Source of the DNA: Eledone cirrhosa
Taxonomy: Eukaryota
DNA length: 64,000 nt
Assembly (NCBI GenBank): GCA_964016885.1
Contig: OZ024741.1
Location: forward strand, 268,274,001-268,338,000
Reading direction: 5' to 3'
Every line of letters starts with the position of its first letter. The first letter of the stretch is position 1. Under the pieces are notes generated by a model that saw only the letters and a program-made list of their open reading frames with translations, did not search any database and had not been told where the DNA came from. The translations under genes were made by a program, and so were the position numbers. Shown one piece after another: positions 21,451 to 60,553 of this stretch.

Positions 21451-21574
21451 AAATTTTTATACTCTGCTATGTATTGGGTACCTTACTTACTGTGGTTACC
21501 TCCAATTCAACCCGGAATAACTTACCTATATATATTTATATATCTCTATATATATATATATATATAATATACAA

Positions 21575-22852
21575 ATGGAAGAGAGAGAAATTACCCTCAG
21601 TAGATCCGACAGAGGAACCAGCTATTGAGATTGACGAATAAAGGGGCCAAGAGGCAATTAAGGAAATGAAAAATGGTAAGGCTGCTGGACCATCGGGAAT
21701 AGTTGCTGAGATGCTGAAGGTATCAGGGGACGTAGGCACTAAACTGGTTGCACGCATCATCAATCAGGCTATATATGGTGGTGTCATACCCAAAGACTGG
21801 TGCAGCAGTATTATCATAAATTGCTACAAAGGTAAAGGGGATGCTCTGGAGAGGAGCAATTATAGGGGTATAAAACTGATGGATCAGGTGATGAAAGTGG
21901 CAGAAAGGATATTAGCACAACTAATTAGAGAAAGGGTCAAACTGCATCTCAAGAGTACAACAGATGCCCTCTTCTTGGTGAGACAATTTCAAGAGAGGTT
22001 CTTAGAGAAAAATAAGCCACTATACTTAGCCTTTGTTGACCTAGAGAAGGCTTTTTATAGGGTACCCCAATCTGTCATCTGGTGGTCCCTAAGAAAGCTA
22101 GGTATTGAGGAATGGCTTGTGAGGACAGTGCAAACTTTGTACAGAGGTACTGTCAGTAAAGTCAGGGTAGGAATGGAGTTTAGTGAGGAATTCCAGATAC
22201 AAGTAGGAGTACATCAAGGTTCGGTCCTCAACCCGCTCTTGTTCATTATAGTCCTCCAAGCCATAACAGAGGAGTTTAAGACTGGCTGTCCATGGGAACT
22301 TCTCTATGCTGACGATCTGGTTCTTTTAGCAGAATCAGTAGAGGAGCTAGAGAATAAATTCTGGCTTTGGAAACAGCAGTTGGAAGCAAGAGGACTGAGA
22401 GTGAACCTAGCTAAGACAAAAGTGTTGATAAGTAGAAAAGAGGACAAAACTCTGATTCCGTCAGGGAAATGGCCATATTCGATATGCAGAAAAGGAACTG
22501 CATAAATTCTATAAAATGCATACAATGCAGATCTTGGGTACACAACAGATGTAGTGGGATAGCAGGCAAACTAACAGGTATGGAGAAATATGTATGCAGT
22601 AGATGTACAGGGAAATTAGACAGTAGAAGTTGCATTGATAGACACATTTTTCAAATGCAGGCAGGTGCTATAGAAGTGGTGGATAGCTTCCGATACCTAG
22701 GAGATCAGAGTGAGAAGAGACCTCAGATCGCTGAAGCTCACGGTGGAGATGACAAAGGACCGTGACAAGTGGAGAGATGCTGTGCTGAATAAGACCTGTC
22801 CCACCCTTGCAAGCAGGGAAGAGCGGACGTAAAATGATGATGATGATGATGA
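21575..22852 (+). mobile_element. 5'-truncated RTE LINE with internal deletions
   Basis: ORF 21666-22505 is an RT (KGKGDALERSNYRGIKL, ELLYADDL); jumps from YLGD directly to the 3' end; (GAT)n tail. Confidence 0.92.
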
Positions 22853-23120
22853 ATATATATATATGTATATGTTTAGAATTGGAGCTCTGAAATAGCAATA
22901 TATATATGGATGTATTGCAAAATACATTATATATACATCCATATGTATATGTATATATATGTGTGTTAAGTATTTCCATAGAAAGGGTAAAGGAAAGAAG
23001 AGTGCTCTATATATAGTACAGAGCTATTTAATTATGTAATAAACAATACAATATATATATATATAAATATAAATATAAAAATAGAAAAATAGAAAAATGA
23101 ACACAAACACACACAGACAC

Positions 23121-23176
23121 CCGGATGTGGCGCATGCGCAAACTGAGCACGCAACCCACACACAAACAAAATGGCG
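23121..23176 (+). promoter_or_regulatory. Clustered ETS-, NRF1- and YY1-like promoter motifs
   Basis: CCGGATGT (23121), GCGCATGCGCA (23130), CAAAATGGCG (23167) within 56 bp of otherwise CpG-poor DNA. Confidence 0.45.
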
Positions 23177-23222
23177 TAGGATAGAAGAAAGGAAAGGCAC
23201 AGAAACGAAGAAAGAAATCCCC

Positions 23223-23267
23223 AGTCACTGAAGAGGTCACAGAGTGTGTGACGAAAGAACTATGACT
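23223..23267 (+). ncRNA. Minimal type I hammerhead ribozyme
   Basis: agtca CTGAAGA g-gtcac-agagtgt-gtgac GAAAG aa CTA tgact; stem I agtca/tgact, 5-bp stem II, very short stem III. Confidence 0.7.
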
Positions 23268-23481
23268 ATATATATATAAACAACTATCTGGTTGTGGAAC
23301 CAACCAACCAACCAGAAATTTATAAATTTGTAAATTTATAAATATATATTAAATTAAATTGAAGTGAAAGCAACTGGTGCGTGTGTTTCTTATTGGCAAC
23401 ATGACCCTCCCAAAGTATAACAATATCGGTTTCAACACACGATTTCAGATAAAGAATCTTGCTAAACAAATTCAGAAACGA

Positions 23482-23587
23482 AATACAATATAATTATTCC
23501 ATTACCCAAGGTTTCACGAAGTCAGACGCTACTGTTAGAATTGTCTCTTTCCCGAAACCTTGGGTAATGGGATAATTATATTGTGTT
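23482..23587. repeat. Fold-back of HHR family B 3' half
   Basis: Arms aatacaatataattattccattacccaaggtttc / gaaaccttgggtaatgggataattatattgtgtt; homologous to PLE pLTR at 53015-53050. Confidence 0.8.
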
Positions 23588-23862
23588 ATTTATTACATAA
23601 TTAAACATATATATATATATACATATATATGTGTGTGTATATATATATATCAACTAGAAATTGATTGACATATATATATATTTAAAATAAACACATGAAA
23701 CAATCACAGGGGGTAATTTGTAAAGTGTGTAATCACACATAGCTAGGTAGGTAACTAATTAAAGTTTAACTAGAGCTTCAAATATTACCTTTTTAAAAAA
23801 AAATATATATATATACATACATATTTATGTATGATATATATACACATACATATATGTGTATA

Positions 23863-23901
<39 letters not shown>

Positions 23902-23910
23902 CATATATAT

Positions 23911-24043
23911 ATATTTATTAAAATAACAGATTAAAGTTTAAGCAAAGAATCGCTGCTTTCACCCTTAACGGGATCTAAGATCCCGTTAAGGGTGAAAGCA
24001 GCGATTCTTTGCTTAAACTTTAATCTGTTATTTTAATAAATAT
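23911..24043. repeat. Perfect 133-bp palindrome centred on A23977 within a remnant HHR core (family C)
   Basis: Centre gatct-a-agatc; right arm ctAAGA t-ccc-gttaa-ggg-t GAAAGC a GC; tail continues to ~24130, and its end also occurs at 14955-14985. Confidence 0.9.
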
Positions 24044-24151
24044 TTGCTCTACGGTTCTTATATATTTGATATATATTTTCCTTATCGAGCCCTCTTTGGA
24101 TTTTAGTCTTCAATTTTATTATTATTACTATATCATATATATATATATATA

Positions 24152-25210
24152 TCATCATCATCATCATCATCATCGTTTAACGTCCTGTGGGAGGGGGTGG
24201 GGCATATTGTCTATATGCTTCTGCTTTGGGTTGTACTCATGAGAAGTCGGGTCTTCTGTATTACTGTGTGACGCCAGAGGTCACGGTCATGTGTCATCGC
24301 CTTTGAGAGGTGCAATTAGGTAAGGTCGGCTTTTATCACCTCATCCCAGGTCTTCTTGGGTCTCCCCACTCCATGGCTTCCATCGACTTCTAGCGCTTTG
24401 CACCTTTTTATGCAGCTGTCATCCTTCATACGTATCACATGTCCATACCAATGCAGCCTCTTCTCCTGCACACAGCATTTGATTCCTCTTATGCTCAGTC
24501 TCTCTCTTAATTCGTTTATACTTTGCTGTTCGCGTATATTACTATTACACATCCATCGGAGCATGCAGGCTTCGTTTCTTTCTAATCTACGCAAGTCTTT
24601 TACAGACAACGCCCAGGTCTCACTACCATGTAACATTGCTGTTCGTATGCACGCATCATACAGTCTGCTTTTCCTTTTGAGGAAAAAGCCTTTTGCAGCT
24701 AGCAGTGGCAGTAGCTCCCTGAACTTCTTCCATCCCGTTCTTACCCTGGTACTTTCCGAACACCCACCTCCATGGCTAATTCAGTCACCTAGGTAGCAGA
24801 AGCTGTCTACTGTTTCTACAGACCCCTCCCAGAATTTGGTAGTGCTTGTTTCCTGTGGCCATTTGCTGATTGCTGTCCTGGTAAAGTCTACATTCTTAGC
24901 TAAGCTTCTTGAGATCCCACTACATCTCTTGTGTACACACTGTTTGCATTTGGGGCCGAGGATGGAGTTCCTACCTACACCTTTCCTACATACTGAGCAA
25001 GGCCATTTCCCTGAGGGGATCTGGGTTCTGCTTTCTCGTCTACTTATGAGGACCTTAGTCTTTGTCAGGTTGTCTTTGAGACGCTTTCTTTCTAGTCCCT
25101 GCTTCCATGTTTGGAATTTCTTCTCTAGTTCCACCATAGATTCAGTTATAAGTGTGAGATCATCTGCATACAGGAGTTCCCATGGGCATCTGGTCTTAAA
25201 CTCCTCTGCA
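24152..25210 (-). mobile_element. 5'-truncated RTE LINE
   Basis: ORFs 24781-25137 and 24316-24636 closely match the 61604 ORF; (CAT)n at the left end is the tail. Confidence 0.92.
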
Positions 25211-25239
25211 ATACTATAATGAACATATATATATATATA

Positions 25240-25491
25240 CAGGGGTGGTGGAACTGGGGAGGGGGGTACATGTCCCCCTTCCCCAAATAATTATATTTTT
25301 CTTCCCAAACTACCAAAATACACATCTATTTGTATATGTGTTACAATTCATGTACATGCTATATTTGTTGCATATCAAAGTTTTTTATATTTTGGTTGAT
25401 ATTTGATGATAAGAGCTAAACTAATCACTACAACTAAATTGACCAAATCCACCCCACCCCACCCCATTCAGAAATGCTTCCACCGCCCTTG
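25240..25491. mobile_element. MITE with GC-rich TIRs (PIF/Harbinger-like) in a TA tract
   Basis: caggggtggtggaa ... ttccaccgcccttg. Confidence 0.55.
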
Positions 25492-26726
25492 ATATATATA
25501 TATATATATATATTACTGTTTACTCAGGGAGGTAAGGAGGTAACAACTGAAGAACTGTCTGTGACCCTTTCCAGGGTTTTTCGAGACATCCAGGAAGAAA
25601 GCATGTTTGAATTGGACACTTTGAATCCTTTGAATCCTTTGAACAGAGGTGATGGTACAAACTCCTTGGAACTCTTTCGATACCAAACCACCTGAATCTA
25701 CCCCTGATTCTATGATTCTAAGCTGTATATTTTAAAGTGTTTTTATTCATCAAAAATCTTTTATCATAGTTTTATCTAAAAACCTTTGTTAAGTTATGTT
25801 CCAAACATCAACACTGTTTAACATCTATTTTCCATGCTTGCATAGGTTAGATGGATTGTCATATTATGAGGTTAGCCAGGTCAGGTCATGTAACCATATC
25901 TTGCTCATACAGATCTTTTGGGAGCTTGGTTTCTATGGCTAGATGCCCTTCTTAACACCGATCAGGTGTTTTTTTTATCATGGTATTAGCTTGACCACTT
26001 AACAGGGTGGGCTGGGTGCTTTTGTTGTAATGGCACCAGCACTATCCCTGTGCAGAGTGGACTGGGTGACTTTTGTCATTGCAACAGCACTGTGGGAAAG
26101 CAGGTGTGAAGTATGTTCAGCTTTCCATGCATGTATGGGTTGGACAGGAGAGGTGTATCATGTATGTGGAAGGCAGAGCAAGGAGTAGGCTTACATCCTC
26201 ATCATTGTTAAACATCTACTTCCCCCACCCTCCTGGGCAGAGAGGCTGTCATGTTCTAAGACAAGGCTGGACAGGAGACCACAGTTAGATCATACATCCT
26301 GTGAAACCACATCTAGTTCATAGACCCTGTTTTTGTTTTGCCATGTTGGCATAGGTTGGTGGAGGGGAGTGTATTTGCTTGTATGTGTCTACGCGGACCT
26401 GGGTGTGGATATGCATGTATGTGCATGGCTGCGTGTGTATGTATTTGTGTGCATGTGCAGGGATAGTCACGACATACAAGGGTATGAAATGGACGCATGT
26501 ATATGTGTGTGTGTGTGTATGTGCATGTATACAGGCTTGTGCATATGTAAGTATGTGGGTGTGTGTATATGCACGTATATATTTCTGTGTGGGGGGGGGG
26601 CCTGTGGGCATATGAGCGTGTATGTATGTACATGTGTCTGTCTGTGTGTGCATCTGTGGGTTGTATGTATGCACGGATGTATGCAGGTGTGTACACCTAA
26701 ACCTGTGCAAGAGTGCCCGTAAGGAC

Positions 26727-26762
<36 letters not shown>

Positions 26763-26907
26763 GCACAATTGTGAGTATCTGTAACTGTATGCATGGGTGT
26801 CTATGTGCATGTGTGTGCGTATATATATATGGGTGCATATATGTATGTGTGTGTATATATATATATGAGTAGGCTTGAATGTGTGCTTGTGTATGCAGGG
26901 GTATATA

Positions 26908-26954
<47 letters not shown>

Positions 26955-26971
26955 GTATGTGTATGTGTACA

Positions 26972-27010
<39 letters not shown>

Positions 27011-27480
27011 GTATGTGTATGTGTACATGTGTGTGTATATCTGTGTATACATGTACCTATGTATGAGGGTGTGAATATATGTATGTGTAAGTGTGTGGGC
27101 ACATGTGTACCCGTACATGCGGGTATGTGTGTGTACATGTCTGGACAAATATGTATGTGATCGGGAGTTCTGAGTGTCTGTGTGCGTGCACATGTATGTG
27201 TGGGTGAGTGTATTTCGAGGTACAAGCAAGCTCGGGGCATTCAAGACAGATTACAACCCCCTGCCCATATAGTAGTAATTCTGGTGGCAGAATTAAGGTG
27301 AGTGATAGCTTACGCCTGAATGGAAATAGTCAGTGGGCAGTTTTGACTGGTCAAAAATACAGATGACGACTCGAATTCTTGACCAATGGATGGGCTGTGT
27401 AAGCAGGATAATTATAGATGGGAGAAACTCAAAGGGACAGAATAGCATCAGACGGAAGATTTGCCTCAAAGTCGCTAGAC

Positions 27481-27569
27481 GTATCTGAGGAATTTGCGAA
27501 TCCAGAGTCAGGTTCAATCCATAAATAGATCGTACCACGAGCTGTTCGCCAGAGAAACAATTGTAATAC
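27481..27569 (+). ncRNA. Type I hammerhead ribozyme with extended stem II (family E)
   Basis: gtat CTGAGGA [~60 nt, gcgaa/ttcgc] GAAAC aatt GTA atac; palindromic stem III ACAATTGT. Confidence 0.75.
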
Positions 27570-29112
27570 TTTAATAAATTGTGTTTCGATGCATCACTGA
27601 TTCTTCATTTTCTATAATATTATACTCTGCTCTGAAGAAGCATAGAGTGCTCAACTGCCTATGGATACATCCAAGCAACCTTACTACAAATATATATATA
27701 ATGGTCTAGTGACTTTTTGGACACCCTGTATATATATTTCTGGGTTTTTGCAATCATTGGGTCTCAGGTACAATCACATTATGTGGAATCTTGGGCAAGT
27801 ATCATTTACTATATCCTTGTATCGACCCATACCTGGGTGGTGGTGGTAGTGTTTGGGGTGGGTCAAATTGGGTTGATGGAAACTTTTGGAAGCCGTAGGA
27901 TGTGCTGCACTTGTAATTAAAAAGCCCTGTGTTACGCTGAATCTTCCAGAGAATACATTAAGGGTTACAGTGTCTGTGGACTGCTCAGCCACTTACACGT
28001 TAATTTCATGAGCAAGCTTGTTCTGTTGATCATTCTTGAACATTCATCGTCGAAACCGACGGGAGTTCATCCCATTTCAGAGTCTAAACGACCATGTAGC
28101 TTCTATTGTGGGGTTTCATTCCGAACCACTGAGTCAGTCTTTATATACTATGTATCTTATACAAACACCAAGGATTAAAGAAGCCTTTTATACATTTTTT
28201 TTTCGTCCACTTTAGCATCCCAGCATGCAATTCAAAGATAATGTCGTGTTACGCACGCGCACATGTGAATAGCCTTGAATTTGTTCACAATTATCTTTGT
28301 ATAGACTGACATTTGGAGAGAGAAATAGATAGATAGATAGATAGATACAAATATGGAGAGGAAGGGAGACAGAGATCTACCATAAGTGAACCGAAATAAT
28401 GGTGTTATTTGTATTCTGAGATTAAAAAATGAAAGTAGGTCAAAAGGTGTATTGTGTTGAGAGGTAATCCAATTTTCAATGTAAGCTAAACAACATTCCT
28501 TATATTAAAGCATTGCTTAATCGTTGAAATGACAGTGGAATTAGAACGTACTGCCTTGTCCTTCTCCTCCCAATAAAATCTTGTTAGCTGGAAGAGACAA
28601 TATAATGCGCCAGATGTTTATTGTTACAGATGTCATAACAGTGGGAAAAAAAGTCATAGAAAAGAAAAAGTCACAATTATAGCTAGAAAAATAAAATGAC
28701 ACATTTCGTTTAAATATCTTAATAGTATTTCATAACCAATTAATCATTTCTTAACTAATTAATGACATTATACCTATCTAAAAAATAAAATATTCTATTA
28801 ATTTAAAAGAGAAATAAACAAAATATATACACTAAATCTATTAACATTTTTATTGTCCCTTCCCCCCTCCCCCGGGATTCTAACCATGACAATCCCGTGT
28901 TTTTAGTAGTTTTTCCACTTTTATTATATTACATAATGTGTCCGCTTCGATTTTAAAGCAGTATAGTGTAATTTGAGGGAGATTTGGTTGCTATCTCCAG
29001 CAAGTCGGAGCAGGCTATTGTTGCTATTTTTGTAGATTGGGTGAACATGTTGATCACCCCTTTGGCTCGTTAATAATTCTGGTGTTTGGTGTGGATGTGG
29101 TTTTGGTGACAG

Positions 29113-29424
29113 TGTGTGATGAAAGTGAAAATAATAAAACATGAGCAAGAATTCTCGGCCATCGCTACCCCCAATGATACGAGCACACACAGTGTGGGAA
29201 AACACTCTTTGGGGTGCAGAACGCCAAGCGCAGGTCTCCTTGCTGTCCCGGTGAATAGAATGGAGAAAGCGTTAACTCGAAGGTTAATGAGCGAGACGCG
29301 TTGTAATAGGCTTTCTAACTCGATGGGGGCTCTGCAGTCAATAGAAGTGGTTCGAAAGCCAAGAGAGCCAGAGGTTTCAACCGCCACAGGTTCAACGACC
29401 TCCAGATCAACAATGACTGAGTAG
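29113..29424 (+). CDS. Candidate host terminal coding exon (Ser/Thr-rich C-terminal tail); product unknown
   Basis: Unique, GC/CpG-enriched ~100-codon frame after a possible acceptor ggttttggtgacag; ends ..STATGSTTSRSTMTE*; no TE motifs recognised. Confidence 0.4.
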   Translation, partial: CVMKVKIIKHEQEFSAIATPNDTSTHSVGKHSLGCRTPSAGLLAVPVNRMEKALTRRLMSETRCNRLSNSMGALQSIEVVRKPREPEVSTATGSTTSRSTMTE

Positions 29425-30869
29425 ACATATGGCCAAAGACGTTCCAGCCATGTACATAAGACATTGTGCAATGGGACCTACAATTGTTTAAAGACAGTAG
29501 TGTGTGATTTGAAGAAGATTTGGCTGCTAAACTAGCAGATCGAAGGATCATGTAGAAGCTCCCTCGTTAGCTCGTAACAGTGGGCTTCTGTTGTTGTTAT
29601 TTAATCACGTCAATTGTGATGGACAGGCCTATGATTTAACCCTTTAGCATTTAAAGCGGCTGTATCCGGCCAGAATTCTAGCGGCCTAGCTAGTTTGTGC
29701 TCCCCGCCACCACCACAACCACCACCAGAGATGTCCTTAAACTTACCACCATTTTCATGAAAAGCACTATACGATGCACGACAAAAGTGCCGCCTGGGAT
29801 GGATCTCGCCTGATCACGCTACAGGATTTAAAGCATTGCAAATATGATCACTTTGATTTTTTTAAAGGTCATTTAGGAGAACTACATTATCTAATACGCC
29901 ATGACCTTATATAAATCAATAGAGTACGATTTGAGGGAAATTTTGGTACTATTTTTAACAGGTGGAGTGACTACTTAGAGTCTCTCGTTAGCTCCTGACA
30001 AAGTGCTTGCGGTAGTATGGTATAGTGTAAGTACAATAATCTCGGGGGCGGTACCAGCACGAATCTAATGAAGCGTTTTTGCAAATATCACTCCGTCAAA
30101 TGATCAAACTATTTATATATTGACGCTGAATTTGCTGAAGCAGAACAAATCTGTTAGTGACACTTAACCATAACAATAGATACTTTCTGCTGTATAGTGT
30201 CATCCATAGTAATCATATTTTTTTGTTTTTTTAACACAACACTGTATACTGGTAATAGTAAGGCTGTCCCTACTACTATGGAACACCGTATTAAAAACAA
30301 CAATCAAATCTTAACAAAAGAAATGGATACATTTGTTAATGTAAGTTCGTTCCACCTGAAATACAGGATAATCACAACTTACTTGTGACTGGTAATGCAC
30401 AATGTAATATGGTGGTAGTGCTATGCTGAATACAGTGTGGTGTGGTGATGTTATATATGTAGTACAGTGTAGCATGGTGGCAGGGTGATATATATGTAGT
30501 ACAGTGTGGTATGGTGCTTGTGGTAGTACAATGTTGTACGGTAGTGGTGGTAGTGTGATATATATATATATGCAGTACAGTGTGGTATGGTATGTTGGTG
30601 CTGGTGGTAGTACAGTTTTGTGTAGTGATGGTGGTGATAGTGTGATATATATATATGCAGTACAGTGTGGTATGGTATACTAGTGATGGTGGTAGTTGTG
30701 TTATATATGTATATAGTGTGGTGTAGTGGTGGTGTGGTATCTATATATACAGTGTGATATGGTGGTGGTGGTAGTAGTGTGGTATCAATCTATCATCTCC
30801 CTAACTCTTACCTTATCCCAATATATCCATCTTGTCAACTTTCCTTATGAACATTTAGTTGTAAGTTGA

Positions 30870-34596: not shown

Positions 34597-34631
<35 letters not shown>

Positions 34632-34714
34632 GGAGGTGAGTTTTATTGTAGCACAATAAAGCAATGCAAATATTGGATAAGTAGCACTCAACAGTTTATA
34701 GGACTGGAGTATAA

Positions 34715-34923
34715 ATAATATAAAATCAAAAGATGGTTAAAAGAGTTCCATGTATTTTATTATGCACATTTCAAAAACAAATATCATCATGGGATGATAT
34801 TTGCATTCTCATCAGATAAAATAGGGAGACATAATGAGAATGTAAATATCATCCCATGATGATATTTGTTTTTGAAATGTGCTTAATAAAATACATGGAA
34901 CTCTTTTAACCATCTTTTGATTT

Positions 34924-34931
<8 letters not shown>
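34715..34931. repeat. Fold-back palindrome (~98-bp arms, 21-bp spacer) of HHR family D'
   Basis: Arms differ at only a few positions; the right arm begins at ATGA of the CUGAUGA core; flanked by (TA)n. Confidence 0.92.
34755..34821 (-). ncRNA. Type I hammerhead ribozyme (family D')
   Basis: ttttat CTGATGA gaatg-caaatatcatc-ccat-gatgatatttg-ttttt GAAA tgtgca TA ataaaa. Confidence 0.8.
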
Positions 34932-38855: not shown

Positions 38856-38891
<36 letters not shown>

Positions 38892-38984
38892 CCAAAGATT
38901 AATATGGTTCGTTGATTACTCAACGAATACAGTTTTACAATAGATTAGAAGCACTCAACAAAAAAAGTTTTCCTTGAGTTTTTA

Positions 38985-40313: not shown

Positions 40314-40344
<31 letters not shown>

Positions 40345-40381
40345 ATATAAGATCAAAAGATGGTTAAAGGAGTTCCATATA

Positions 40382-40448
40382 TTTTATTATGCGCATTTCA
40401 AAAACAAACATCATCAAGCAATAATATTTGTGTTTTCATCAGATAAAA
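40382..40448 (-). ncRNA. Type I hammerhead ribozyme (family D', minus copy)
   Basis: Reverse complement of 40602-40668. Confidence 0.8.
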
Positions 40449-40601
40449 CAGGAGAACATGATATGAAGGCTAAAAAAACACTTGTTGATAGTGCAGTTTT
40501 AAATCAACATGCAGTTTTAAATCAACAAATCAACATGATATGTTGATTTAAAACTGCACTATCAACAAGTGTTTTTTTAGCCTTCATATCATGTTCTCCT
40601 G

Positions 40602-40668
40602 TTTTATCTGATGAAAACACAAATATTATTGCTTGATGATGTTTGTTTTTGAAATGCGCATAATAAAA
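40602..40668 (+). ncRNA. Type I hammerhead ribozyme (family D')
   Basis: ttttat CTGATGA aaacacaaatattattgcttgatgatgtttgttttt GAAA tgcgca TA ataaaa; palindromic stem III ATGCGCAT. Confidence 0.82.
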
Positions 40669-40705
40669 TATATGGAACTCCTTTAACCATCTTTTGATCT
40701 TATAT

Positions 40706-43835: not shown

Positions 43836-43840
<5 letters not shown>

Positions 43841-43965
43841 TTTATAGAAGGAGCTTCTACAGGACTAGTACTGTTTCATTCAGATGAAATCTTCAGGAAG
43901 CTTCCTGAAGATTTCATCTGAATGAAACAGTACTAGTCCTGTAGAAGCTCCTTCTATAAAATAAA
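43836..43965. repeat. Perfect 130-bp palindrome, no spacer, centred on AAG|CTT
   Basis: Exact reverse-complement arms; (TA)n on the left and after the tail (ends ~44037). Confidence 0.95.
43899..43949 (+). ncRNA. Type I hammerhead ribozyme (family A); identical overlapping copy on the minus strand at 43852-43902
   Basis: agcttc CTGAAGA t-ttc-atct-gaa-t GAAACAG tactagtc CTGTA gaagct; stem I covaries with the 21390 copy. Confidence 0.88.
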
Positions 43966-44035
43966 AAATGTTTACTCTGCCATGTATTGAGTACCTTACT
44001 TACTGTGGTTATCCCCGACTCAACCCGGGACCTAC

Positions 44036-44102
<67 letters not shown>

Positions 44103-45878: not shown

Positions 45879-46008
45879 ACAATAAATTGAGTTCAGATAC
45901 ATCACTGATTTTTCGTTTTCTATTCTATCATACTCTGCTCTGTAAGAGCATAGAGTGCTCAACCGGCATACCGCCTATGGAAGCATCTTAGCTACCATCA
46001 GACACACA

Positions 46009-48432: not shown

Positions 48433-49212
48433 TAATCATCATCATTACCGTTTAACATCCATTTTCCACACTAACATAGGTTAGATGAATTGCCCAGTTG
48501 TGAGACAAGCCAGGTCTAATGACCATGGCTTGCTCATATAGGACTGATTTTGGCTTGGCTTGGCTTCTATGCTCTTCCTAACACCAACTACATTTACTGT
48601 GTGTGCTGGGTGCTTTTTGTTGTGACACCTACTTTTTGCCGTAATACCTACTCAACTACTTTGTAGTATGGGTTAGGCACCTTTTGTTGTTTTGGATTCA
48701 TACATTACATTGAGTACATCATATTAACTTCTTACCGACTCCTTTTCTACGTATTCACTATGGTCACTTTCTTGATGAGTTCAAAGTCTTGTATTCTATT
48801 CTACTTAATAAAACTTTGATCTTTTCCAGGTTTACTCTGAGCCCTTTTGATTCTAAGTTCTAAGCTTCAAATTGGAAAGTCATGTCATATAGCATTACAA
48901 CACCCTACAATTCTATCAGGAGTTACAATTATATACATACATGCTAGTATATCATCATCATCACCATTTTCATAGCTGTTTTTCCATGCTTGCATGGGTT
49001 AGTCCAGTCCTCTCTATTACAGCATTTCTCCACTGGTTTATTTACTATAAATAATCTGACAGTCAAGCTTAAGTATGGAGTACTTAAGAGTTGAATAATG
49101 GACTTACTAGTCTTAACGAGTAACATCTATATAATCTATATGTGTGTGTGTACATGTACATAATCATCATCATCCATTTTCCATGCTTGCATAGGTTAGA
49201 CAGGTTGTCACA

Positions 49213-51929
49213 ACCTTAAATTAGAAGTAGAAAATGGTACCAAAATAGTTAATTTCCTAGACGTTACCTTTAACTTAAACACTGGCTTCTATTACCCTTT
49301 TCATAAGCCCAATGAAAACTTAAACTATGTTAGTAACCATTCCAATCACCCTAAATCTGTAAAAAAAAAAGGTATAGTAAATAGTGTGCAAAAACGAATT
49401 AATAAAATATCAGCCAATAAACATATATTTGATGAAAACGCTGAATACTACAACAACGCATTAAAAAGAGCAGGATATACGAATAATATAGAATATGTAG
49501 ATAATAATAATCCAAGTATTAATCTTAATAAAAATAATAACATACATAAGAGAAACTCTATTAATTATAATTCAAACACCCATACGCCAAATAAATTGAG
49601 GATACGAACTAGAACTAAACCAGTCATATGGTTTGCCCCCCCACCTGCTTCTGTCGCAGTTAAAACACCAATCGCAAAATTATTCTTTAAAGCTCTTGAC
49701 ACCTCTTTCCCTACTCAACATAAATACCATTCCATTTTTAATAGACATACCATTAAATTCTCCTATTCTACAACCAGTAACATGGCCCAAAACATCGCCA
49801 AATTAAACACTAAAATCCTAAAACAAAACCAGCATAATGATATTAATAATAGAGTTAACATAAATGACACTAAACCTAAATAATTGTAGAAATAAAACTG
49901 ATTGCCCTTTGCAAAATAATTGTTTAGATAGTAATTTGGTTTATAAATGCACCGTAAAAACTGATCACAATACTTACAACTACATAGGATCGACTTCTTC
50001 CACTTTTAAAGCCAGATTTGCGAACCATAAATGCTCATTCTCGAACTCAAAGAGGAAATCATCCACGTCTTTATCACAGCTCATATGGTCATTAAAAGAG
50101 AAGAATTTAAAATACTCCATTCTTTGGACAAAACTTCGGAACTGTGGAGTTTACCACAACTCAAGTATATCAAATAACTGCGCACTCTGTACAATGGAGA
50201 CCCTGTTGATTATTAATAACTACGAGACCCTAATTAACAAAAAAAGGGAATTATTCTCTAGTTGCCTCCACATTCTTAGCCTCCCACAAAACGAGAAAAA
50301 AAAGAGAGAGAAACATTAAACCATTAAAAACTTGGTTGTTAGACGTATAAAATCAACAGGGAAAAACTTTAGTGGCCTTTAATATTGCACTATCTTATAA
50401 CTATCTATAGAAGAAATAACGCTCGAATGAAAGACACTTGTTCAATAACATGCCGGAACATTGATACACATAACATTATTCTGTTAACTTTGATCCATAC
50501 CATTATTTCTTTATTTCTCTATCCTTATCTTCCTACTTAAGTTTTAAATCTGAGTTTTATACCCAACCCTTACATCTTTACTGAACTTATTTATAAGTGT
50601 GAATTTTTCATGCGTTTCTGATCTCTTATTTATAATATGTATGTAATTATATTTTCTATGTTTTTAAATGTACCTACCGCATTCTTATATCCATGATTCA
50701 AATATAGAGCAAATATCCAAATTATAAATTATTATAAACATTATTTAGCACTATGAATTATCCATGCATTTATTATTGTTTTTCTTACATATATGTATTT
50801 AACTTTAACACGTAGAACTTTATTATATAAAATTATAACCGTTATCATTTACCTAAAGTATACTGTATCATTAATACATAATATAAGATATATCCTTATA
50901 TAACTCCCAGTATCTTTCTATACATAATTTTCAGTTAACTTCTAAATTTTTTGATTGTTTTTACTTTGAGCTAGGAATAATTAATACATGTACACACGGT
51001 TATATATGGGTATATATTTAGTTTTAACATGCCTCAATCTATTATTTTATTTTTATTTTATTTTCATTATCATTTACCTAAAATATACTGGCTCATTAAT
51101 TAATATATACCTATATACATAACAGTTATTTAAATTTTTCTAACAATAAGTACTTCAAAAGCTTCACATACCTAATACGTTGACAATGACTAACTTCATT
51201 AAAGATTACATTTATGAAAATATTCAACAGTGTAAACTTTCCTTAATAATGGCCTGTTAAACCCTTTAAATCTTATCATCAAAAAATTCAGAAGCCTAGA
51301 CATGTTAACACACTTATAAAATTTACAAAACTAATATATAAATAACCACCAATTTTATTTTTAAAAACCTAAAATATTGATTCTTCACCCTAAGATAACA
51401 TAAATTAAATATTTTCAAACTTAACCGTTTAACTTTCGGAAAAAAAATCTCCTTCTACATATATTACCACTTATCTTCCCTCTCTCTATATATATTATCC
51501 CAGCGGCTCTCATTGACCGCTTTCCCTGATAAATTGTAGTATCATACATTTTAAAATCTCTATAACTGGTACATTAAGCAACGTTTTTCTTATTCACACA
51601 TTCTCTATTGAATTTATTACGTTTTCGCATTTTCTCATTATGAGGGTATAAATGTTAAATTTTCTCTTAGGTTAATCACTACCTTGATTAAATCTTAACC
51701 ATTTAACATCCCAGGGTATGTCATGTATCATTATATTTTGTCTGACGAGGACGTACTGTTGTACATCCGAAATATGTATAATAAAATGTAATTGATCAAA
51801 AGAACATCTATTTTATTAATATTTATATTCTAATATTAATAACTCCGGAAAATTATTTTACTGTAGAGTGCTTCCAATCTACTGTAAAACTCATTCTTTG
51901 ATATACTCATTGAATTTTGTTTAACTCTT

Positions 51930-51930: not shown

Positions 51931-52002
<72 letters not shown>

Positions 52003-52402
52003 CACATATATATGTTTATATATATATACATTAATAAATTGAATATCACAATACCACTAGCTGCTTCACACAATGCATGGTGCTGCAACATCGTGCCACT
52101 CAATGTTAGCCGGGGTTAAAGAGATGGAATTTGGTAATGAGGTGGTAAAAATTGAACAAATTCATCAGAGCAATTAACAACATTTCAATATGATTAGCGA
52201 CTTAATGATCATCAAATCATCGAATAACGACATCAAAGTTATTGATATATCCCACAAATTAATTATGGTCATTAACAAAAATTAATATAGCTAACATTAA
52301 ACAATTGATAATTGGGTCAATTGGGAAGAAGACCAAAGAATATACATATGTGTGTTTATATATATATATATACTTTGTGATCCTGTCTCTATGTTAGTAC
52401 TC

Positions 52403-52430
52403 CTGAAGAAGGACTAAAGCCCGACACGTC
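52403..52430 (+). ncRNA. Degenerate ultra-minimal hammerhead (family F); relative at 58419-58446
   Basis: CTGAAGA aggactaaagccc GACAC GTC and CTGACAA aggactaacgtcc AAAAC ATT; each has core substitutions. Confidence 0.4.
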
Positions 52431-52505
52431 AAACTTTCTTTCTCCTTTTCCATATAAAGTGTGAAACTAATAAGACTTTTTGTACCTCTGTTTGTTGTCT
52501 CCTTG

Positions 52506-52568
<63 letters not shown>

Positions 52569-52823
52569 TATATATATATATATGTGTGTGTGTATGTTTG
52601 GAAATACAGCCAAGAGAATGGTTGTTTAATAAATAACATATAGTAGGGTGTATCTATTTGTTCAAGGCTGAGAGTTTCTTGCTATGTGCTTCTTCAGGCA
52701 ACAAATATAAAGATACACCCATGTATGCGTACCCATACATACATGCACACATATGCACATACATATGCATACACACACACATATATATATGTATATATAT
52801 ATATATATGTATATATGTATATA

Positions 52824-52908
<85 letters not shown>

Positions 52909-53031
52909 GTATATATATATATATAAGTATTGAAGTTTCCGTTGAAAATTGAAAAAGTCATAGGAGTGAAGAGTGCTCTATGTAAGTGCCAGAGCTAAAT
53001 TTAATGTATAATAAACAATGCAATATAATTA

Positions 53032-53099
53032 CCTCATTACCAGAGGTTTCCCGAATAAGACGAATACGAAAAACGTCCTCATTCGTTCGTCGGATAAGG
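53032..53099 (-). ncRNA. Type I hammerhead in PLE pLTR (family B, U4C variant)
   Basis: ccttat CCGACGA a-cgaatgag..cttattcg-g GAAACC tct GGTA atgagg. Confidence 0.7.
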
Positions 53100-53857
53100 C
53101 AATTTAAAATATAGTGAAATATTTGAAAAATCTCCCCAAGAAAGGCAAAAGTTTAACGAGCCAAAAAAATATAAATAAAAGTAATGCAAGAGATATATAA
53201 AAAAATAAGGAAATATAGTTAGGGTATGTGTATACATGTGTGTATATTCACTCACAAATGTACATATGTGTGTATATACAAATGCATGTGTATAGTGAAA
53301 AAACATGTGCGAAAGTACATATATGAGGGTAAGCATATCAGTGTATGTGTGACCACAAATACGTATATATGTTGAAAAAGGAATTGTAAGATAATAGAGT
53401 TAACGTACATCCAGATACAGGTATTAAGGAATGAAATATACACACGTACAAGTATGAAAGCACGCGTATAAACACACACGCGCGCGATCACACACATGCG
53501 AGTGATGTATAGAGGGAAGGGAGTCTATCAGCCAAAAGGGTGTCAGTCTGGGGCTCGTTACATATAAAAATGAAACAATATAAGAGAATAAAAAATTTTA
53601 AATCAAAGAGAAAGTAAGAGGGAGGGGTTATCAATTATAAATTAACACTAGAAAAAAAGAAAACAAACATAGGTTCGTACGTACACACACATATATATAT
53701 ATATAAATATATATATATAAATACGTACAGACAAAAGCACATACATACACACGTAGCACATATATATATATATATATATATCGGCACATGTATATCTAAT
53801 CACAAGTACGTACGCGACTATATATATATATATACATATATACACACATACATACAC

Positions 53858-53896
<39 letters not shown>

Positions 53897-54274
53897 CATA
53901 AACACATACATTCACCCATACACACACACACACGTATATATAAGTATGTAAAAAACATAGATATAAAAACACACACACACACACACATATATACACACAC
54001 ACGCACACATACGGAGACGTTCGTATACATATACAGAACGCATACACATACATGCACACACACACGCATAGATACAAATTATAAACCAGCCGTATGAATA
54101 AATGAGTACAAATATAAAAGCGGCTGCGAAGCAACAGAATATATCTGAAGTTGAAAACACAAGTGACATGTGGTAACAAGTAGTGAAAGAAAATGTGGAA
54201 GTAAAATGTGGAATTGTGAAGATATTAGGTAAGTGAATCAAAAAGTAGGGGGGGGCACTGGTGGATGTGAAGTA

Positions 54275-54395
54275 AAAATAAATAAAAATAAAAATAAAAA
54301 TAAAAATAAAAATAAAAATAAAAATAAAAATAAAAATAAAAATAAAAATAAAAATAAAAATAAAAATAAAAATAAAAATAAAAATAAAAATAAAG
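54275..54395. repeat. (AAAAAT)n microsatellite in the PLE 3' region
   Basis: About 19 copies. Confidence 0.95.
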
Positions 54396-56245
54396 TTAAA
54401 AATAAATTAGAAAGAGAAGTCTGTAAAGAGGATAATTAAAGGAAAGTGAAGAACAAGAGTTTATGAGTTAAGTTTATATGAGCTGGAAAGCAAGTGTGAT
54501 TTCATGTGTGGGCAACTGGTGAAAATTTCTGTTTTTGCATTTAGGCAGGTTTTTTGGTGATATAATGTTTTGTAAAATCCAATATTTTTCACTTTGCAGA
54601 GTGCGCATCTTCTTGTTCCTCTTTCATATTCTTTAGATTGGTTCAAAATTGACCAATCTAATTTATATTGGATACCTTGGTCTTTCAAATCCCATATTCT
54701 GCTAGCCAGAGCTGTTGTAAATCTTTTTTCAGGATGTCGGAAAGATGCGATATGTGAGTAATAACGCGTTTTGAATTTGTCTTGTGTCATACCCACATAT
54801 CGTTCGCTGGTGGCTGGTAGGTTGTTGCTGATGGTTAGCTGCATATACAATGGCTTTGGTGTTGCATTTACCTTGTAACGAGCATTCACTTTTGACTCTA
54901 CAGGAGCAATTTTGATGTTCTCTGGGTGTTTTCTTATTGAGGATATAAGATTTAATAGGGGGACCGCAGGAATAGCTAATTTTGACACAGTTTCTATTGA
55001 AGATCTTATAGTATCTATTTGTTCTAGGGAAATGTTTATCTAAGAGCTCTAGGAATGTTTTGCCTACATTAGTTTTAACTGCTAAAGAGTAGGGGTGTGT
55101 GAACCAGATTATTTTTCTTTTCCTATTATTATATTTAAAGGAGTTAGTATTATTGGGTATGTACTTAATCGGTTCGCTGAATCCGCTATTTTGAAGGGCT
55201 TTATTATAGTAGGGGGATGCCTTATTGAAAATAGCTTCTGAGGAAGAGAGGGTGGATATCCTATGGCTAATATTAGGGATAAGGTTTTTAAAAACTATAG
55301 GAGGATGGTAAGAGCCTTTATTTATATATTTTAAATTTTCATTGGGTTTATGGTATGGTTTATAAGAAGCAATAGGCAGATCTAGGTTTATATCTAGAAA
55401 ATTAACATTGGAAAGGTTAGTGTCAATAGTAATTTTAAGATTAAAACTAGCGAAGGTTTTTATTAAGTCTTTCCTTAATCTATCTAAGTTATGGCCTATG
55501 GTGGTATGGGAAAGTATTAGACCATCGTCGCGATAAAGCCCAAATGTATGGTTAGGGAATTTCTCTTTAAGTGTGTGTGTAGGAGGAATATTATATATAT
55601 ATATATATATATATATGCAGGATACAGATTAAGACCTTTAGAAGCACAAGTACTGAAAAGATTATGGTACCTCCATATTTGTGTATGGAACAAGCTCCTA
55701 TATTCTGTACTAGGAAAATACTCTGTGCCCCCCCCCCCCAACTGAAACCCTAAACATGTGCTTACTTTGCATAATTGTTTAATCCAGGGTTGCATATGTG
55801 GTAGCTGTTACACTTCTCCGGGATGTTTGATACACAGATCCCACCCATCACCACCACCACCACTGTTTACCCCCACCATCATGTCACCCCCCCCCCCACC
55901 TACTGTACCGCTTTCTGGTTATGTCTACCACTGCTAAAATCATCTTCCCACATCCTTGAAAAGTCTCTGTTGTTTTGCCTGAATGTCTATCAGTAATTCT
56001 ATCTCTTTCTTTCTTTCTCTCTCTCTCTCACTCCACCCCAACAACCCCACCTGTCTTTCTGCCAACCCTGCAACCCCTAGATCCCCCCCACCCGCCCTGG
56101 CATTTGACACACTTAAATTTTTTTTTAATTTATACTTACCCAGCTTTTTTTTTCTTCAACATGACCCAGCAAATCTCTCCCCTTAGTGTTGAACTCAAGT
56201 ACATTGGTTTGACATAGACACAAGCCCCCATCCACACATGTATGC

Positions 56246-56312
<67 letters not shown>

Positions 56313-56974
56313 ATATAAACATATATATATTGTAAAGGGTCAGTGCCCAACGGCTGAGTGCATATTTATATATGTATATATGTGTGTATGTGTGTGTGTG
56401 TGTTGCAAAATGAAAATAAAATCGAAGATAGGTTGTTAAATAGTTCATTGTTTTACGATCGTTTCAAAGGGTTAATTGATCATGGTAGATCGATATATCA
56501 ACTAGCAGGTTGTGGTTATGTCGCTACCTGTCTCTAGTTTCAAAATAACTGATTTATCGCACTGTCTTCTTCAAAAACAATGTATATGTATACATAATGT
56601 AAAGAGTTAGTGCTCAATGCTTGCATGTGTTGGATCCATTCTTCTCAGCTTGACATCTCTCCAGTTGCTGTGTTCCTTCATCATATATATATATATATAT
56701 ATATATGATATGTCACAATGATATGTCACATACTACACAGACTCGGCATAACTGGAAAAGTAGGTGAGTGGCTGCATGATTTCTTAAAAGACAGAAGCCA
56801 GACAGTTGCAGCAAATGGGGTCATTTCAAATACACGACGCATCACCTGGTCTGAGAATCAAACTCATAACCTCAAAATTACAAGCAGAATGCTCTAACCA
56901 CTAAGCAATGCAATACCATATACCACATATGATTATGATTGAAAAATAAGGTTTTTCAATGGTTCAATGTTATT

Positions 56975-57450
56975 TGGACTAGTTTATAGCAATTCTGATG
57001 ACCTTCCTCTTTTGTACAGTAGATACTTGGTAGGGATTTCTTCTTCCTAGATTGCCTTGGAGACATCCTTCAAGCTGGGATGTTAATTCATTTAAGATAC
57101 ATTTCTCCCAGCCCACCATCAATTGTTTTATGCCAGGTGCTCTTTGCTTATCAAGGCCTTTGCTTTTCATGTGTTGGCCACCTTAATGCTATCTTTGCTA
57201 TTCTGTCTTAGTCAATGCTCAGTATGTGGCCTAGTTATCTGAGCTGCCAACATTTTATTAAAAGAAAAAAGCACTATTGTAACAAGTTTTGCAGAAATGT
57301 TCCTCAGTTGATGGTTTTTTGGCCAGAAGATGTAGCAAATTTTTTCTCATCCACCCATTGTGGAAAGCATTGATCTTATGTCCACTTTAACCACTTGCCA
57401 ACCTTCTGAGCCATACATCAGGACAGGACATATTACCACATACCTGATAG
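56975..57450 (-). mobile_element. Decayed RTE-like LINE 3' fragment (another family)
   Basis: AFHNGWMRKICYIFWP..QLR*LGHIL..RIAKIALRW. Confidence 0.6.
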
Positions 57451-57576
57451 CCTAAATGTCAGACTATTACTTATCCTGTTCTACAATAACAATCATCATC
57501 ATATCCCTTTTTTCATGCTTGCCAGTTCATAACATCCCAGCTTGAAGGATGTATCCAAGTAATCCAGGAACAAGAA

Positions 57577-58190
57577 ATGCCTACTAAATACCTACTGTAC
57601 AAAAAAGGAAGGTCATCAGTTGACAATAAATATAAGCTAAACAAAATAAAGACTGAAGATATTAGCTGCATTATTGCCAACGGTGAAAGAATGTATTCTT
57701 TTTATTACCTTCCAATGAGACATAATGTGATAGATAGAATGATTTGCAATGCATCGCGGAAGATGAAACTAAAATCAAATAAGGAGGAATATGTTGAGAT
57801 TTATGGCTCAAATGAATACTGGTGGAACATAAAAATAAAAATTGTCACCAAATTAAAAAACAACCGGCTTGATATTGTTGTTTGAGACCACACATTAAAA
57901 ACATACTCTGTTGTAGAGATCAGCTGCCCACTTGATGTCAGTGTGGTAAGAAAAATACAAAAAAAGGAGGATACCTATGGACCATTGATGAGGAATTTGT
58001 AGATCTAGTATCCAGCTTTATACCCATTATTATTGGAACTACAGGATATATACCAACCCACCTGACCCGAAGTTTAACTGAACTTGGTTTTGTGGAAAAA
58101 GAATGCAGCTCCTTAATTCATAAGCTACAAATGGCTGCAATATCTGGAACCTTCAAAATTTTAAAAACATTCTTATGATTCAAAATATGA
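57577..58190 (+). mobile_element. R4/Dong-like non-LTR 3' end with restriction-like endonuclease
   Basis: YYLPMRHNVI..NNRLDIVV*D..VVEISCPLD..KKEDTYGPLMRNL..IPIIIGTTG..ISGTFKILKTFL (PD..E/D-K RLE pattern). Confidence 0.75.
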
Positions 58191-58789
58191 ATGCTTACAC
58201 AAGAGACAACAATTTCCTTTTCTTTACACCCTTGCCACAGGGAAAGTGACTGGTCAAAAATACTCAAAATTAAGGGAAAGAGAGAACATACATACATACA
58301 ATACATACATACACACATACAAGCATGAAAATAGATGTTTAACAGTGAATTTTCTACAAACGTTTTTTCCATTTTTTCTTTTTCTTTCTATTCCTTCTTT
58401 TATTTCTCATTCTATCTTCTGACAAAGGACTAACGTCCAAAACATTGAGACTCTTTTCCTAATACATCAAACGTTAAACAAGTATATATCTTCAGTGTAT
58501 TTTATCATTTGGTGTATTGTTTTCCGTTTCATTTTTGCACACACACACATATAAACACACTCACAGAAACCTTTTTACACATATATATGTATGAGTATAA
58601 TAATAATTGTTTCTACTTTTGGCACAAGGCCACAATTACCACATTACTGGTACTTTATTTTATCGACCCCGTAAGGATGAAAGGCAAAGTTAACCTCGGC
58701 AGGATTTGAACTCAGAATGGCAAGGACCTGTACAAATGTCATTAAAGTGAACAGTGTATGAATCATGATATACATGTGTGTGTATGGAG

Positions 58790-59410
58790 GGGGATATCAG
58801 GTGTAGTGTTGGCAAATTTCAGGAAGCATGGAGGTTTTAAAGGATGCAGTATCTTGGCAGCTAACAACTGATGCAGGTAGTTTGTTCCATGCTTCATCAA
58901 CTCTGAGCATGGAAAAAATGTTTCCGAAAGTCATGGGAGCTGTGCTGTTTTCTGACTTTGTAGGCATGCCCATGTGTGTTAGACACATGGAGATCAAAAA
59001 GTTGCTCAGGGTTGTTGTTGGCAAGATGGTTAATAATTTTGTGGGTATTTACCAAGTCAGTTGCCAGATGTCGAAGCTTCAATGTATCCATGCCCAGGGA
59101 AGCAAGGTGTTCTGAGTATGGTAGATGCCTGATGGAAGGTATTTGCTTGGTTTCACGTCTCTGAACAGTTTCCAGGGGGTCAATGTTCTGAGCAAGATAG
59201 GGGTTCCAGACTGGTGATACAAATTCTAAGTGTGGCCGCACCATAGCTATATACAACTTTAAATAGATAGCTGGAGAGTCGCTGACAAAGGTGTTGCTGA
59301 GTGATGCCAAGACACCCTCTGCTTTCTTGACAATTTTAGAGATGTGCTTTGCCCAACGCAAATCACTGCTGACAGTAATGCCCAGGTCACGTTCACAAGA
59401 AGACTTCTTG
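58790..59410 (-). mobile_element. CR1-clade LINE 3' end; small CR1-like RT piece also at 56745-56828 (+)
   Basis: ERDLGITVSSDL..LYIAMVRPHLEFVSPVWNPY..LETVQRR..FRKHFF..RVDEAWNKLP. Confidence 0.88.
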
Positions 59411-59957
59411 ATATTAGTATGTGTGCATATATACAGGGAACAGTTTGTATGCATATTTATGTGTGTGTGGTGTGGTGTGTGTGTGAGTGTGTGTATACTT
59501 GTATGCAGAGAGCTACTCACATGTTTGAATATGTGAGAACAGGTGTATAAGTATAAATGTGAATTTATATGTTGAAGAAATTTCAATATATATTATTATC
59601 AGTACATTGTGTATAAATAACTGTACTTAACTTTAAAAATTACTATAGACAACTGTGTACATATTTATTTAACTGAATACACCAATGCACATGTACATAA
59701 TTGTATACAGTACGTAATTGTATATACATATACACATTTATAACCCATTATATACAAGAGCAACTGCACAAATGTGTATACATCTCTACACATCTATATC
59801 TTACTATATACACCAGTAAGAGTATATAGGTGTATATAATTCTACACACCAGTGATAGTACAGACAAATATATAGCCAATGTATATAGCATGTTGTAACT
59901 GTAATATAGATTTCTTTATTTTCCACAAAGGCGCATATAATATATTGTATAGATCAC

Positions 59958-59996
<39 letters not shown>

Positions 59997-60082
59997 ACTA
60001 TATATGTGTGTGTGCACTATATGTGTGTGTGTGTGTGAGTGTGTGAGTGTGGGTGTGTGTGTGCACTATATATATGTGTGTG

Positions 60083-60425
60083 TGAAGGCACATGGCTTAG
60101 TTGTGAGAGCAATGGGCTCGTAATCGTGAGGTTGTGTGTTCAATTCTCAGATCGAGTGATGTGTAGTGTCCTTGAGCAAGACACTTTATTTCACGTTGCT
60201 CCAGTTTACTCAGCTGTAGAAATGAGTTGCGATGTCACTGGTGCCAAATTATATTGGCCATTGCCTTTCCCTTGGTCAACACTGGTGGTGTGGAGAGGGG
60301 AGACTGGTATGTATGGGTGACTGCATGTCTTTCACAAACATACCTTGCCCGGACTTGTGCTGCGGAGGGGGAACTTTCTAGGTAAAAATCCCATGGTCAT
60401 TCGTGACCGAAGGGGGTCTTTACCC
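60083..60425 (+). mobile_element. Full-length tRNA-derived CORE-like SINE
   Basis: tggcttagttg A-box, gttcaattc B-box, gtgtccttgagcaagacact core. Confidence 0.8.
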
Positions 60426-60553
60426 TTTTTTATATATATACATACATATATATATATATTTATATATGCAAAGTTTTATTTAAATTGTTGGGTTACAACG
60501 AGTAAATATTTATAACTGATATAAAAGCACTCAACAAGTATTTGGAGTATATT

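Follow-up and report, generated by a model that had tools for sequence, protein, structure and literature searches.

A duplicated, bulged hairpin lies just 3' of the two classes of insertion ends in Hydra-clade Penelope-like elements and is a candidate signal for reverse transcriptase recognition

Penelope-like elements (PLEs) are the closest retroelement relatives of telomerase, and how their reverse transcriptase (RT) chooses its start is unsettled; this choice, the optional 'tail' of insertions and the inverted copy have all been posed as questions (PMC8557442, PMC11167929). The closest described systems include the Hydra clade, for which RWK, DKT, a CxCx5C linker, CxxC and CxH, and no CCHH, are listed as protein marks (PMC8557442), and the Poseidon element, whose protein cuts and extends both strands, is predicted to form a dimer, and starts RT internally at sites matching the genomic ends, with RNA 3' of the start being required (PMC11167929). 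A circle or template jump has also been proposed for PLEs (PMC4209133), and outside this group the R2 tag is read by the RT protein to license target-primed reverse transcription (TPRT), compensatory rescue having been shown (PMC10499050). Here we analyse a stretch of 64,000 nucleotides (nt) from the 3.0-Gb genome of Eledone cirrhosa (assembly GCA_964016885.1, contig OZ024741.1, positions 268,274,001 to 268,338,000; hereafter the window) in which 11 small hairpins noted in an initial annotation all prove to lie at the 3' ends of Hydra-clade PLEs. We find that these elements carry twin structured, covarying motifs, each positioned 3' of one class of insertion end, and that inverted insertions typically pair one end of each class.

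The motif takes the form RCUC-[stem-loop of free sequence]-UH-GAGY followed by an unpaired RCU, and is built from an almost invariant base stem of 4 base pairs (bp) and an upper stem that is free in sequence, with 2 nt bulged out between them on the 3' strand. Copies that read through carry it twice, with the first hairpin (HP1) after the hammerhead ribozyme and the second (HP2) between HP1 and the ATG of the open reading frame (ORF), about 15–110 nt before the latter. Because no window copy reads through into the ORF, HP2 is not seen in the window and could not have been recognised in the initial annotation. In every family the 3' end that abuts (TA)n comes in two forms, short ends immediately preceding HP1 and long ends immediately preceding HP2 (mapped on 18 read-through references), and in every family with mappable ends the hairpin lies 3' of the insertion end at a near-fixed distance. 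In 1.26 Mb of sequence (six blocks chosen blind to content plus the window) there are 148 TA-joined ends, comprising 73 short, 71 long and 4 others, and 119/148 fall at −10 to −5 of a hairpin (117/141 without the window), compared with 48/284 TA dinucleotides of the reference stretches as background. The HP1–HP2 spacing ranges over 56–169 nt in the 18 references while the offsets stay constant, and since the ends sit 5–10 nt before HP1 or HP2, the insertion tail corresponds to the hairpin spacing (the two correlate at r=0.99, a figure we leave out of account since the way the ends were classified partly presupposes it). UA is usually found within the interval where the ends fall, giving microhomology with the target, and one family has sharp ends with no UA in this interval.

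HP2 of the family at position 43974 is a GCAC/GTGC variant in 8/8 fetched read-through loci, followed in three by a Hydra-type ORF start, and a contig of another organism shows a like run-on. We note that at least 28 genomic copies of 43950–44036 are 100% identical over 87 nt; the family is very young and possibly active, and suits experiments. We also note two ORF-bearing copies which start at the 5' side inside the HP2 loop, right after (TA)n, as though HP2 had halted cDNA synthesis (the L044–L046 region of block C2, and L065; block positions C2 -159247 and C1 -144927).

The two end classes are brought together in fold-back insertions. Among 40 diverging pairs in the blocks, 37 combine a long and a short end, one has two short ends, none has two long ends and two are unclassified (37/38 classified pairs long plus short, p about 1e-10), and loci fetched by one end gave the same combination in 83/88 pairs. 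An exception beyond that count is the window fold-back at 9708–9797, which has two long arms. When 120 long-plus-short pairs were compared, 72 were near-perfect palindromes, the short-ended arm was longer in 26 and the long-ended arm in 7, with 15 unresolved; the 26 pairs with a longer short-ended arm rule out single-primer fold-back from the long end as a general route. Palindrome centres of the most abundant family (43 ends in the sampled blocks) lie 60–70 nt 5' of HP1 in 15/16 cases. A further fold-back at 40344–40705 has two short ends with the flanking microsatellites mirrored too, which could reflect an inverted duplication at a later time or an error of assembly.

Structural conservation was assessed in the window and in hairpins from other organisms. 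All 11 window hairpins have the 4-bp RCTC/GAGY stem (with a single U-G pair at 21461–21479), and the second stem above the 2-nt TH bulge has 2–6 bp in 10/11 and 0 bp in the mutated copy at 38953–38979. A compensatory base stem had been proposed from these copies, and covariation is borne out in 10/11 of them (omitting 24046 with its long loop), 97.1% of cells being paired compared with 84.0% when shuffled. A metagenome scan provided 78 Hydra-type loci which are 38–53% identical in their best segments and, from these, 67 dereplicated hairpins with anchors set by sequence alone. The first three pairs above the bulge are formed in 61/67, 44/62 and 38/44 of these, compared with 48.4, 25.8 and 17.5 when shuffled (0/5000 each), and the bulge is UH in 63/67, while setting the bulge to 0, 1 or 3 nt yields 3–7/67. 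In a subset of 55 hairpins (loops up to 18 nt, five mis-anchored rows removed) 91.7% of cells are paired compared with 78.6%, with a covariation score of 0.320 compared with 0.107, although the shuffle ignores relatedness. Compensatory changes occur at 3/4 base-stem pairs (G-C/A-U/U-A, GTTC/GAAC and GCAC/GTGC), and one lineage in our quick protein tree (built from our own and metagenome sequences only) has the U-A variant of the first pair with both hairpins changed to UCUC/GAGA (L387 and L392). A strand test of G-U against A-C gave 14:8 for the metagenome set (p=0.14) and 9:1 for 20 family majorities (related lineages, with rows partly selected). A pseudoknot or triple helix with a downstream CUG or CUC was hinted at in a few families when examined by eye, and was rejected as inconsistent among families.

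It should be noted that within the window the pattern by itself is not enriched beyond chance (11 matches where 9.2 were expected, and 5 where 2.5 were expected), and that significance rests on position and on wider sampling instead. Across the 1.26 Mb there are 289 motif matches compared with 144–159 in three shuffles, and 56 have a hammerhead core upstream compared with 7–9. A crude, automatic test which began from the hammerheads found the full motif in 12/31 clusters having a long enough copy, compared with 0.76 in shuffles (maximum 5); of the 19 clusters that failed, several did so through mis-anchoring, mutation or a false hammerhead call, and some are truly without the motif. A model made from the 55 hairpins of other organisms recovered 10/11 window sites among 23 matches at E<=10, and the top five were all sites noted earlier, with only four matches at E<=0.05. 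Genome-wide, the twin pattern gave 755 matches compared with 58 for the reversed control; a loose version was swamped by background (16958 compared with 4936 for the control) and was abandoned.

The motif is widely but not universally retained among related elements. Of 36 distinct metagenome 5' regions (>=130 nt), 25 have two hairpins, nine have one and two have none (several of the misses being incomplete), and 9/10 mappable metagenome ends lie at −7 to 0 (two rows re-anchored by eye). It is clear by eye in 3/6 published Hydra consensi, namely Hydra-2_Amil from coral and, from sea cucumber, Hydra-2_Ajap and Hydra-1_Ajap, where it occurs twice (available text of PMC8557442 File S7), and exact matching of four 9-mers from the 3' box gave six occurrences in the available Craig supplement, four at Hydra ends and two in Naiad/Chlamys ORFs (line breaks can hide matches). 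Tandem units of ~175–260 nt (L171, L274, L430, L433 and L434), some with a broken hammerhead core, keep HP1 and HP2 and do so without an intact ORF, and the L274 unit has both hairpins and no CUGANGA box. A 257-nt tandem unit in L274:1000-1900 joins the first ORF codons to half a hammerhead, and in L333:1350-1750 each unit of a 75-nt tandem repeat has one motif-like hairpin. The motif is absent from clusters 5, 6 and 11, where hammerhead and read-through are both seen; cluster 6 continues into an ORF bearing a GxKF-like motif and is probably not Hydra-type. Clusters 10, 15 and 16 showed no read-through. Two hammerhead families without the motif have a different small hairpin ~8–12 nt 3' of their ends when examined by eye (a block C3 tandem array of 310-nt units within L082, and L448, L449 and L454), hinting that an end just 5' of a hairpin could be a wider PLE rule.

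Coordinates of the window features. HP1, first hairpin; ORF, open reading frame; UTR, untranslated region; RT, reverse transcriptase; PLE, Penelope-like element.
Feature	Position	Strand	Remarks
HP1, left arm of fold-back with two long ends	9708..9727	-	Additional to the initial annotation
HP1, right arm of the 9708 fold-back	9778..9797	+	Additional to the initial annotation
Type I hammerhead motif	21389..21439	+	Predicted cut after 21433
HP1 with one U-G pair	21461..21479	+	Long end ~21526
HP1	23004..23024	-	Long end 22960; hammerhead remnant ~23500-23520
HP1, long loop	24046..24090	+	Hammerhead absent in copy; long end near 24130
Type I hammerhead motif, long stem II	27481..27569	+	Predicted cut after 27565
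HP1	27624..27648	+	Long end 27690
HP1	34686..34710	-	Long end 34628; partner is a short-ended inverted arm, end near 34930
Type I hammerhead motif	34753..34823	-	Predicted cut at 34761
HP1, broken second stem	38953..38979	-	Long end near 38890; 5' half of hammerhead cut off
Entire fold-back insertion	43836..44036	.	Short-ended inverted arm plus long-ended direct arm
Type I hammerhead motif	43899..43949	+	Predicted cut after 43943
HP1, young family	43974..43992	+	Element end at 44036 in (TA)n
HP1	45932..45956	+	Degenerate hammerhead core upstream; long end 46002
Hydra-type RT thumb and GIY-YIG ORF, 5'-truncated, frameshifted	49200..50319	+	Element has HP1 at 51842-51869
Type I hammerhead motif	51730..51792	+	Predicted cut after 51780
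HP1, 3' end of PLE with ORF 49200-50319	51842..51869	+	Long end 51932
HP1, 3' end of PLE with ORF 54461-55628	52975..52995	-	Long end 52926
Hammerhead motif, CCGACGA core	53027..53104	-	Predicted cut at 53038
Hydra-type RT and GIY-YIG ORF, 5'-truncated, frameshifted	54461..55628	-	1.4-kb 3' UTR joins ORF to hammerhead
HP1	60529..60548	-	Long end 60467; hammerhead of same arm internally deleted
Short-ended partner arm of the 60529 hairpin		+	Intact hammerhead, predicted cut after 60820

The window contains fragments of RTE-type long interspersed nuclear elements (LINEs), microsatellites and the two truncated PLE ORFs. In full-length relatives there is a single ORF of ~710 amino acids; RWK and DKT (a modified DKG) are present in full ORFs of the 54461–55628 family and in most metagenome ORFs (some having DKS), and the translations show a C-terminal GIY-YIG, the CxCx5C linker, CxxC and CxH with no CCHH, matching the Hydra-clade list. 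Another mark of the clade, a hammerhead in the pseudo-long terminal repeat (pLTR) together with (TA)n insertion, is found as well. Four window ORF fragments were compared with Pfam and no family was assigned, and a monomer structure prediction from a 7-row alignment was of low confidence (predicted local distance difference test score 53) and was set aside. Type I hammerhead motifs were called by script (CUGANGA, GAAA, UH and three stems) at 10 window positions, and 139 times in the 1.26 Mb compared with 8 in a shuffle. An Rfam scan of the window gave 0/135 matches at gathering score with no hammerhead among those listed, and the sub-threshold matches were almost all microRNA models lying on palindromes and microsatellites. 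The open LINE frame at 61196–63676 (minus strand; 826 amino acids), which we take to be of the RTE family, has related fragments elsewhere in the window.

The initial annotation placed a hairpin 30–65 nt downstream of the cleavage site in otherwise unrelated families, and each of its 11 hairpins was found in place with the RCTC/GAGY stem. The link with an intact hammerhead holds for 6/11, at distances of 27, 30, 42, 50, 58 and 61 nt, and not for the rest: at 45932, 60529 and 38953 the core is damaged or truncated, at 24046 it is absent, and at 23004 a later insertion of ~420 nt lies between it and the hairpin. We note that within this insertion (23061–23481) lies one end of another frequent element, which has a minimal core resembling a hammerhead near 23225–23265 (plus strand) and no RCTC/GAGY-type hairpin. 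Nor are the families unrelated, as the proteins of those bearing hairpins are all Hydra-type and 36–45% identical to each other. The earlier interpretation is supported in part; it had overlooked that the stem is bulged, that the motif is duplicated, that the copies relate to the two ends and that a single PLE clade carries them.

We consider that HP1 and HP2 are probably RNA landing pads for the RT-endonuclease which set the start of TPRT ~6–8 nt 5' of the hairpin base. A conserved cis-acting signal for RT recognition or priming had been suggested for the hairpins at the outset, and the near-fixed distance to the ends, the covariation and the retention across distant hosts argue in favour of this. 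Each subunit of a dimeric RT-endonuclease would bind one hairpin on a single RNA, and the dimer would nick both strands of a (TA)n target so that both could prime. One subunit would prime before HP2, copying HP1 and the tail and producing the long end, and the other would prime before HP1 and produce the short end, with UA in the corresponding interval of the RNA often pairing with the primer and picking the exact base. The two cDNAs would then run toward the 5' side of the RNA and join head to head. As HP2 would never be copied into an end, a long-ended copy carrying an ORF, such as exists at 52926–55628 (where the long end is 6 nt before the start of HP2 as placed in read-through copies), would need a template running from the 3' UTR through the hammerhead to HP1–HP2. 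Read-through RNA from tandem copies could supply it, and such arrays exist, or else a circle or a template jump with closure at the site of hammerhead cleavage; since each round from a tandem array would lose a junction, persistence likely needs the circle or jump; this step is an argument and not an observation. More tentatively, the ~20-nt duplicated motif might act as an RNA ruler that programs a dimeric telomerase-related RT to carry out two simultaneous TPRTs on both target strands from one RNA. If true, such a ruler would explain the PLE tail, the inverted pLTR, the regeneration of the hammerhead junction via a circle or jump, and the mobilisation of retrozymes.

A number of observations weigh against these proposals. 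Binding, priming and the dimer are all deduced from position and comparison, RNAalifold predicts only the 4-bp base stem, and HP2 often has a single pair above the bulge. The strand test leans weakly to the sense strand and is not decisive, and folding energies did not favour that strand (21 vs 32; 7 vs 23). The offsets are spread over ~5 nt and blurred by TA microhomology, and a family lacking UA has short ends scattered from −25 to +2. In one family HP1 is imperfect and HP2 is not visible, the other 3/6 published consensi are without a clear motif in the available file (PMC8557442), and the 72/120 near-perfect palindromes are also expected from self-priming.

It is unlikely, though conceivable, that the hairpins act in DNA, with the GIY-YIG endonuclease recognising donor DNA or single-stranded cDNA, cutting at a fixed distance and so processing a longer intermediate into the two end classes. 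The tail has been ascribed to endonuclease-mediated resolution by Craig 2021 (PMC8557442), and the D. virilis endonuclease needed the tail for recognition as reported in Frangieh 2024 (PMC11167929), where the genomic ends of Poseidon are nonetheless the RT starts mapped on sense RNA. The invariant sequence of the base stem and antisense folding energies that are equal or better would suit DNA, while the excess of G-U over A-C on the sense strand would not. Strand joining, moreover, is not a known activity of GIY-YIG nucleases.

The self-priming expected to yield palindromes belongs to another scenario we regard as improbable, in which the template is antisense RNA and the hairpins are boundaries that stop RT, like the template-boundary helix of telomerase. 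Self-priming on an antisense template has been proposed for rotifer PLEs (PMC3846280) and would fit the many near-perfect palindromes, but it does not predict one short and one long end per insertion (37/40), it sits poorly with the sense-strand G-U bias, and sense RNA was the working template for Poseidon in vitro (PMC11167929). We give still less credit to the motif serving transcription or translation, as a DNA promoter element or through a signal in the 5' UTR close to the start codon, with the nearby ends as a by-product: HP2 is indeed close to the ATG and PLE pLTRs contain internal promoters (PMC8557442), but covarying upper stems of free sequence point to a folded single strand, each end follows its own hairpin within ~5 nt, and both hairpins persist in tandem units that have no intact ORF. 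Least credible of all is that the hairpin is a tertiary partner (as the initial annotation had also suggested) or a folding switch of the hammerhead, as although it is always 3' of the hammerhead, minimal PLE hammerheads are weak and may need help (PMC4209133), and the Poseidon ribozyme cleaves only with protein (PMC11167929), its position is fixed to the ends and not to the ribozyme (27–85 nt from the cut in most families, ~185 nt in one, and 31–71 nt in 35 metagenome cases), there are two copies, the L274 unit keeps both with no CUGANGA box, and other hammerhead-bearing families are without the motif.

The motif offers a specific element that can be mutated, natural compensatory variants and quantitative predictions, namely that RT starts 5–10 nt 5' of each hairpin and that tail length equals hairpin spacing. 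It also gives a logical reason for the hammerhead, can serve as a brief diagnostic when Hydra-clade ends are annotated, and might provide RT-based gene writing with a minimal RNA tag. Already known are the host elements, their hammerheads, the fold-back insertions and the tail. What appears undescribed is the bulged hairpin in two copies, a putative cis element for RT recognition, and the way each copy matches one of the two ends; our PLE-directed literature search found no description of the motif, but most subscription papers lay outside its coverage and absence from print is unproven.

The telomerase RNA template boundary element is a structure bound by the sister RT which fixes the template limit at a set distance. 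It stops synthesis from the 5' side, and telomerase RNA has a template/pseudoknot domain where we find no pseudoknot or triple helix here. Our elements resemble the described Hydra clade in protein marks, the ~710-amino acid ORF, hammerhead, (TA)n targets, and inverted copy with tail, and differ in that no hairpin is described in the available text, where the tail is 30–40 bp compared with 56–169 nt here (PMC8557442). Poseidon PAc is similar in having internal RT starts 3' of the hammerhead which coincide with genomic ends, extension of both strands, required RNA 3' of the start and a predicted dimer, but it belongs to another clade, starts inside the ORF, and has no conserved or duplicated motif described in the parts available (PMC11167929). 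Compared by eye with the printed RNA, the Poseidon start is in an AC-rich loop within the ORF, while here the ends are 5' of a hairpin in the UTR, and no RCUC..UHGAGY is seen in that RNA (PMC11167929). We note, by eye, a UCUC/GAGA hairpin in the required region of the printed RNA, beginning ~10–15 nt 3' of where RT was mapped to start in Poseidon (PMC11167929), the base-stem letters of which are those of the L387/L392 variant. The 43-nt R2 tag in the core of the R2Bm 3' UTR is likewise a small stem with conserved unpaired bases, but is a single site 5' of the start at the RNA 3' end and is copied into DNA (PMC10499050), whereas here there are two sites, each of which would lie 3' of its own start and be left uncopied by the RT positioned there. 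Finally, non-LTR retrozymes are short tandem units with a type I hammerhead derived from PLE ends, to which some of the tandem units seen here may correspond, and the available parts of the papers describing them name no cis signal for selection by the PLE protein (PMC7229834; bioRxiv 10.64898/2026.07.22.740005); the motif we describe is a candidate signal for the selection and mobilisation of retrozyme RNA.

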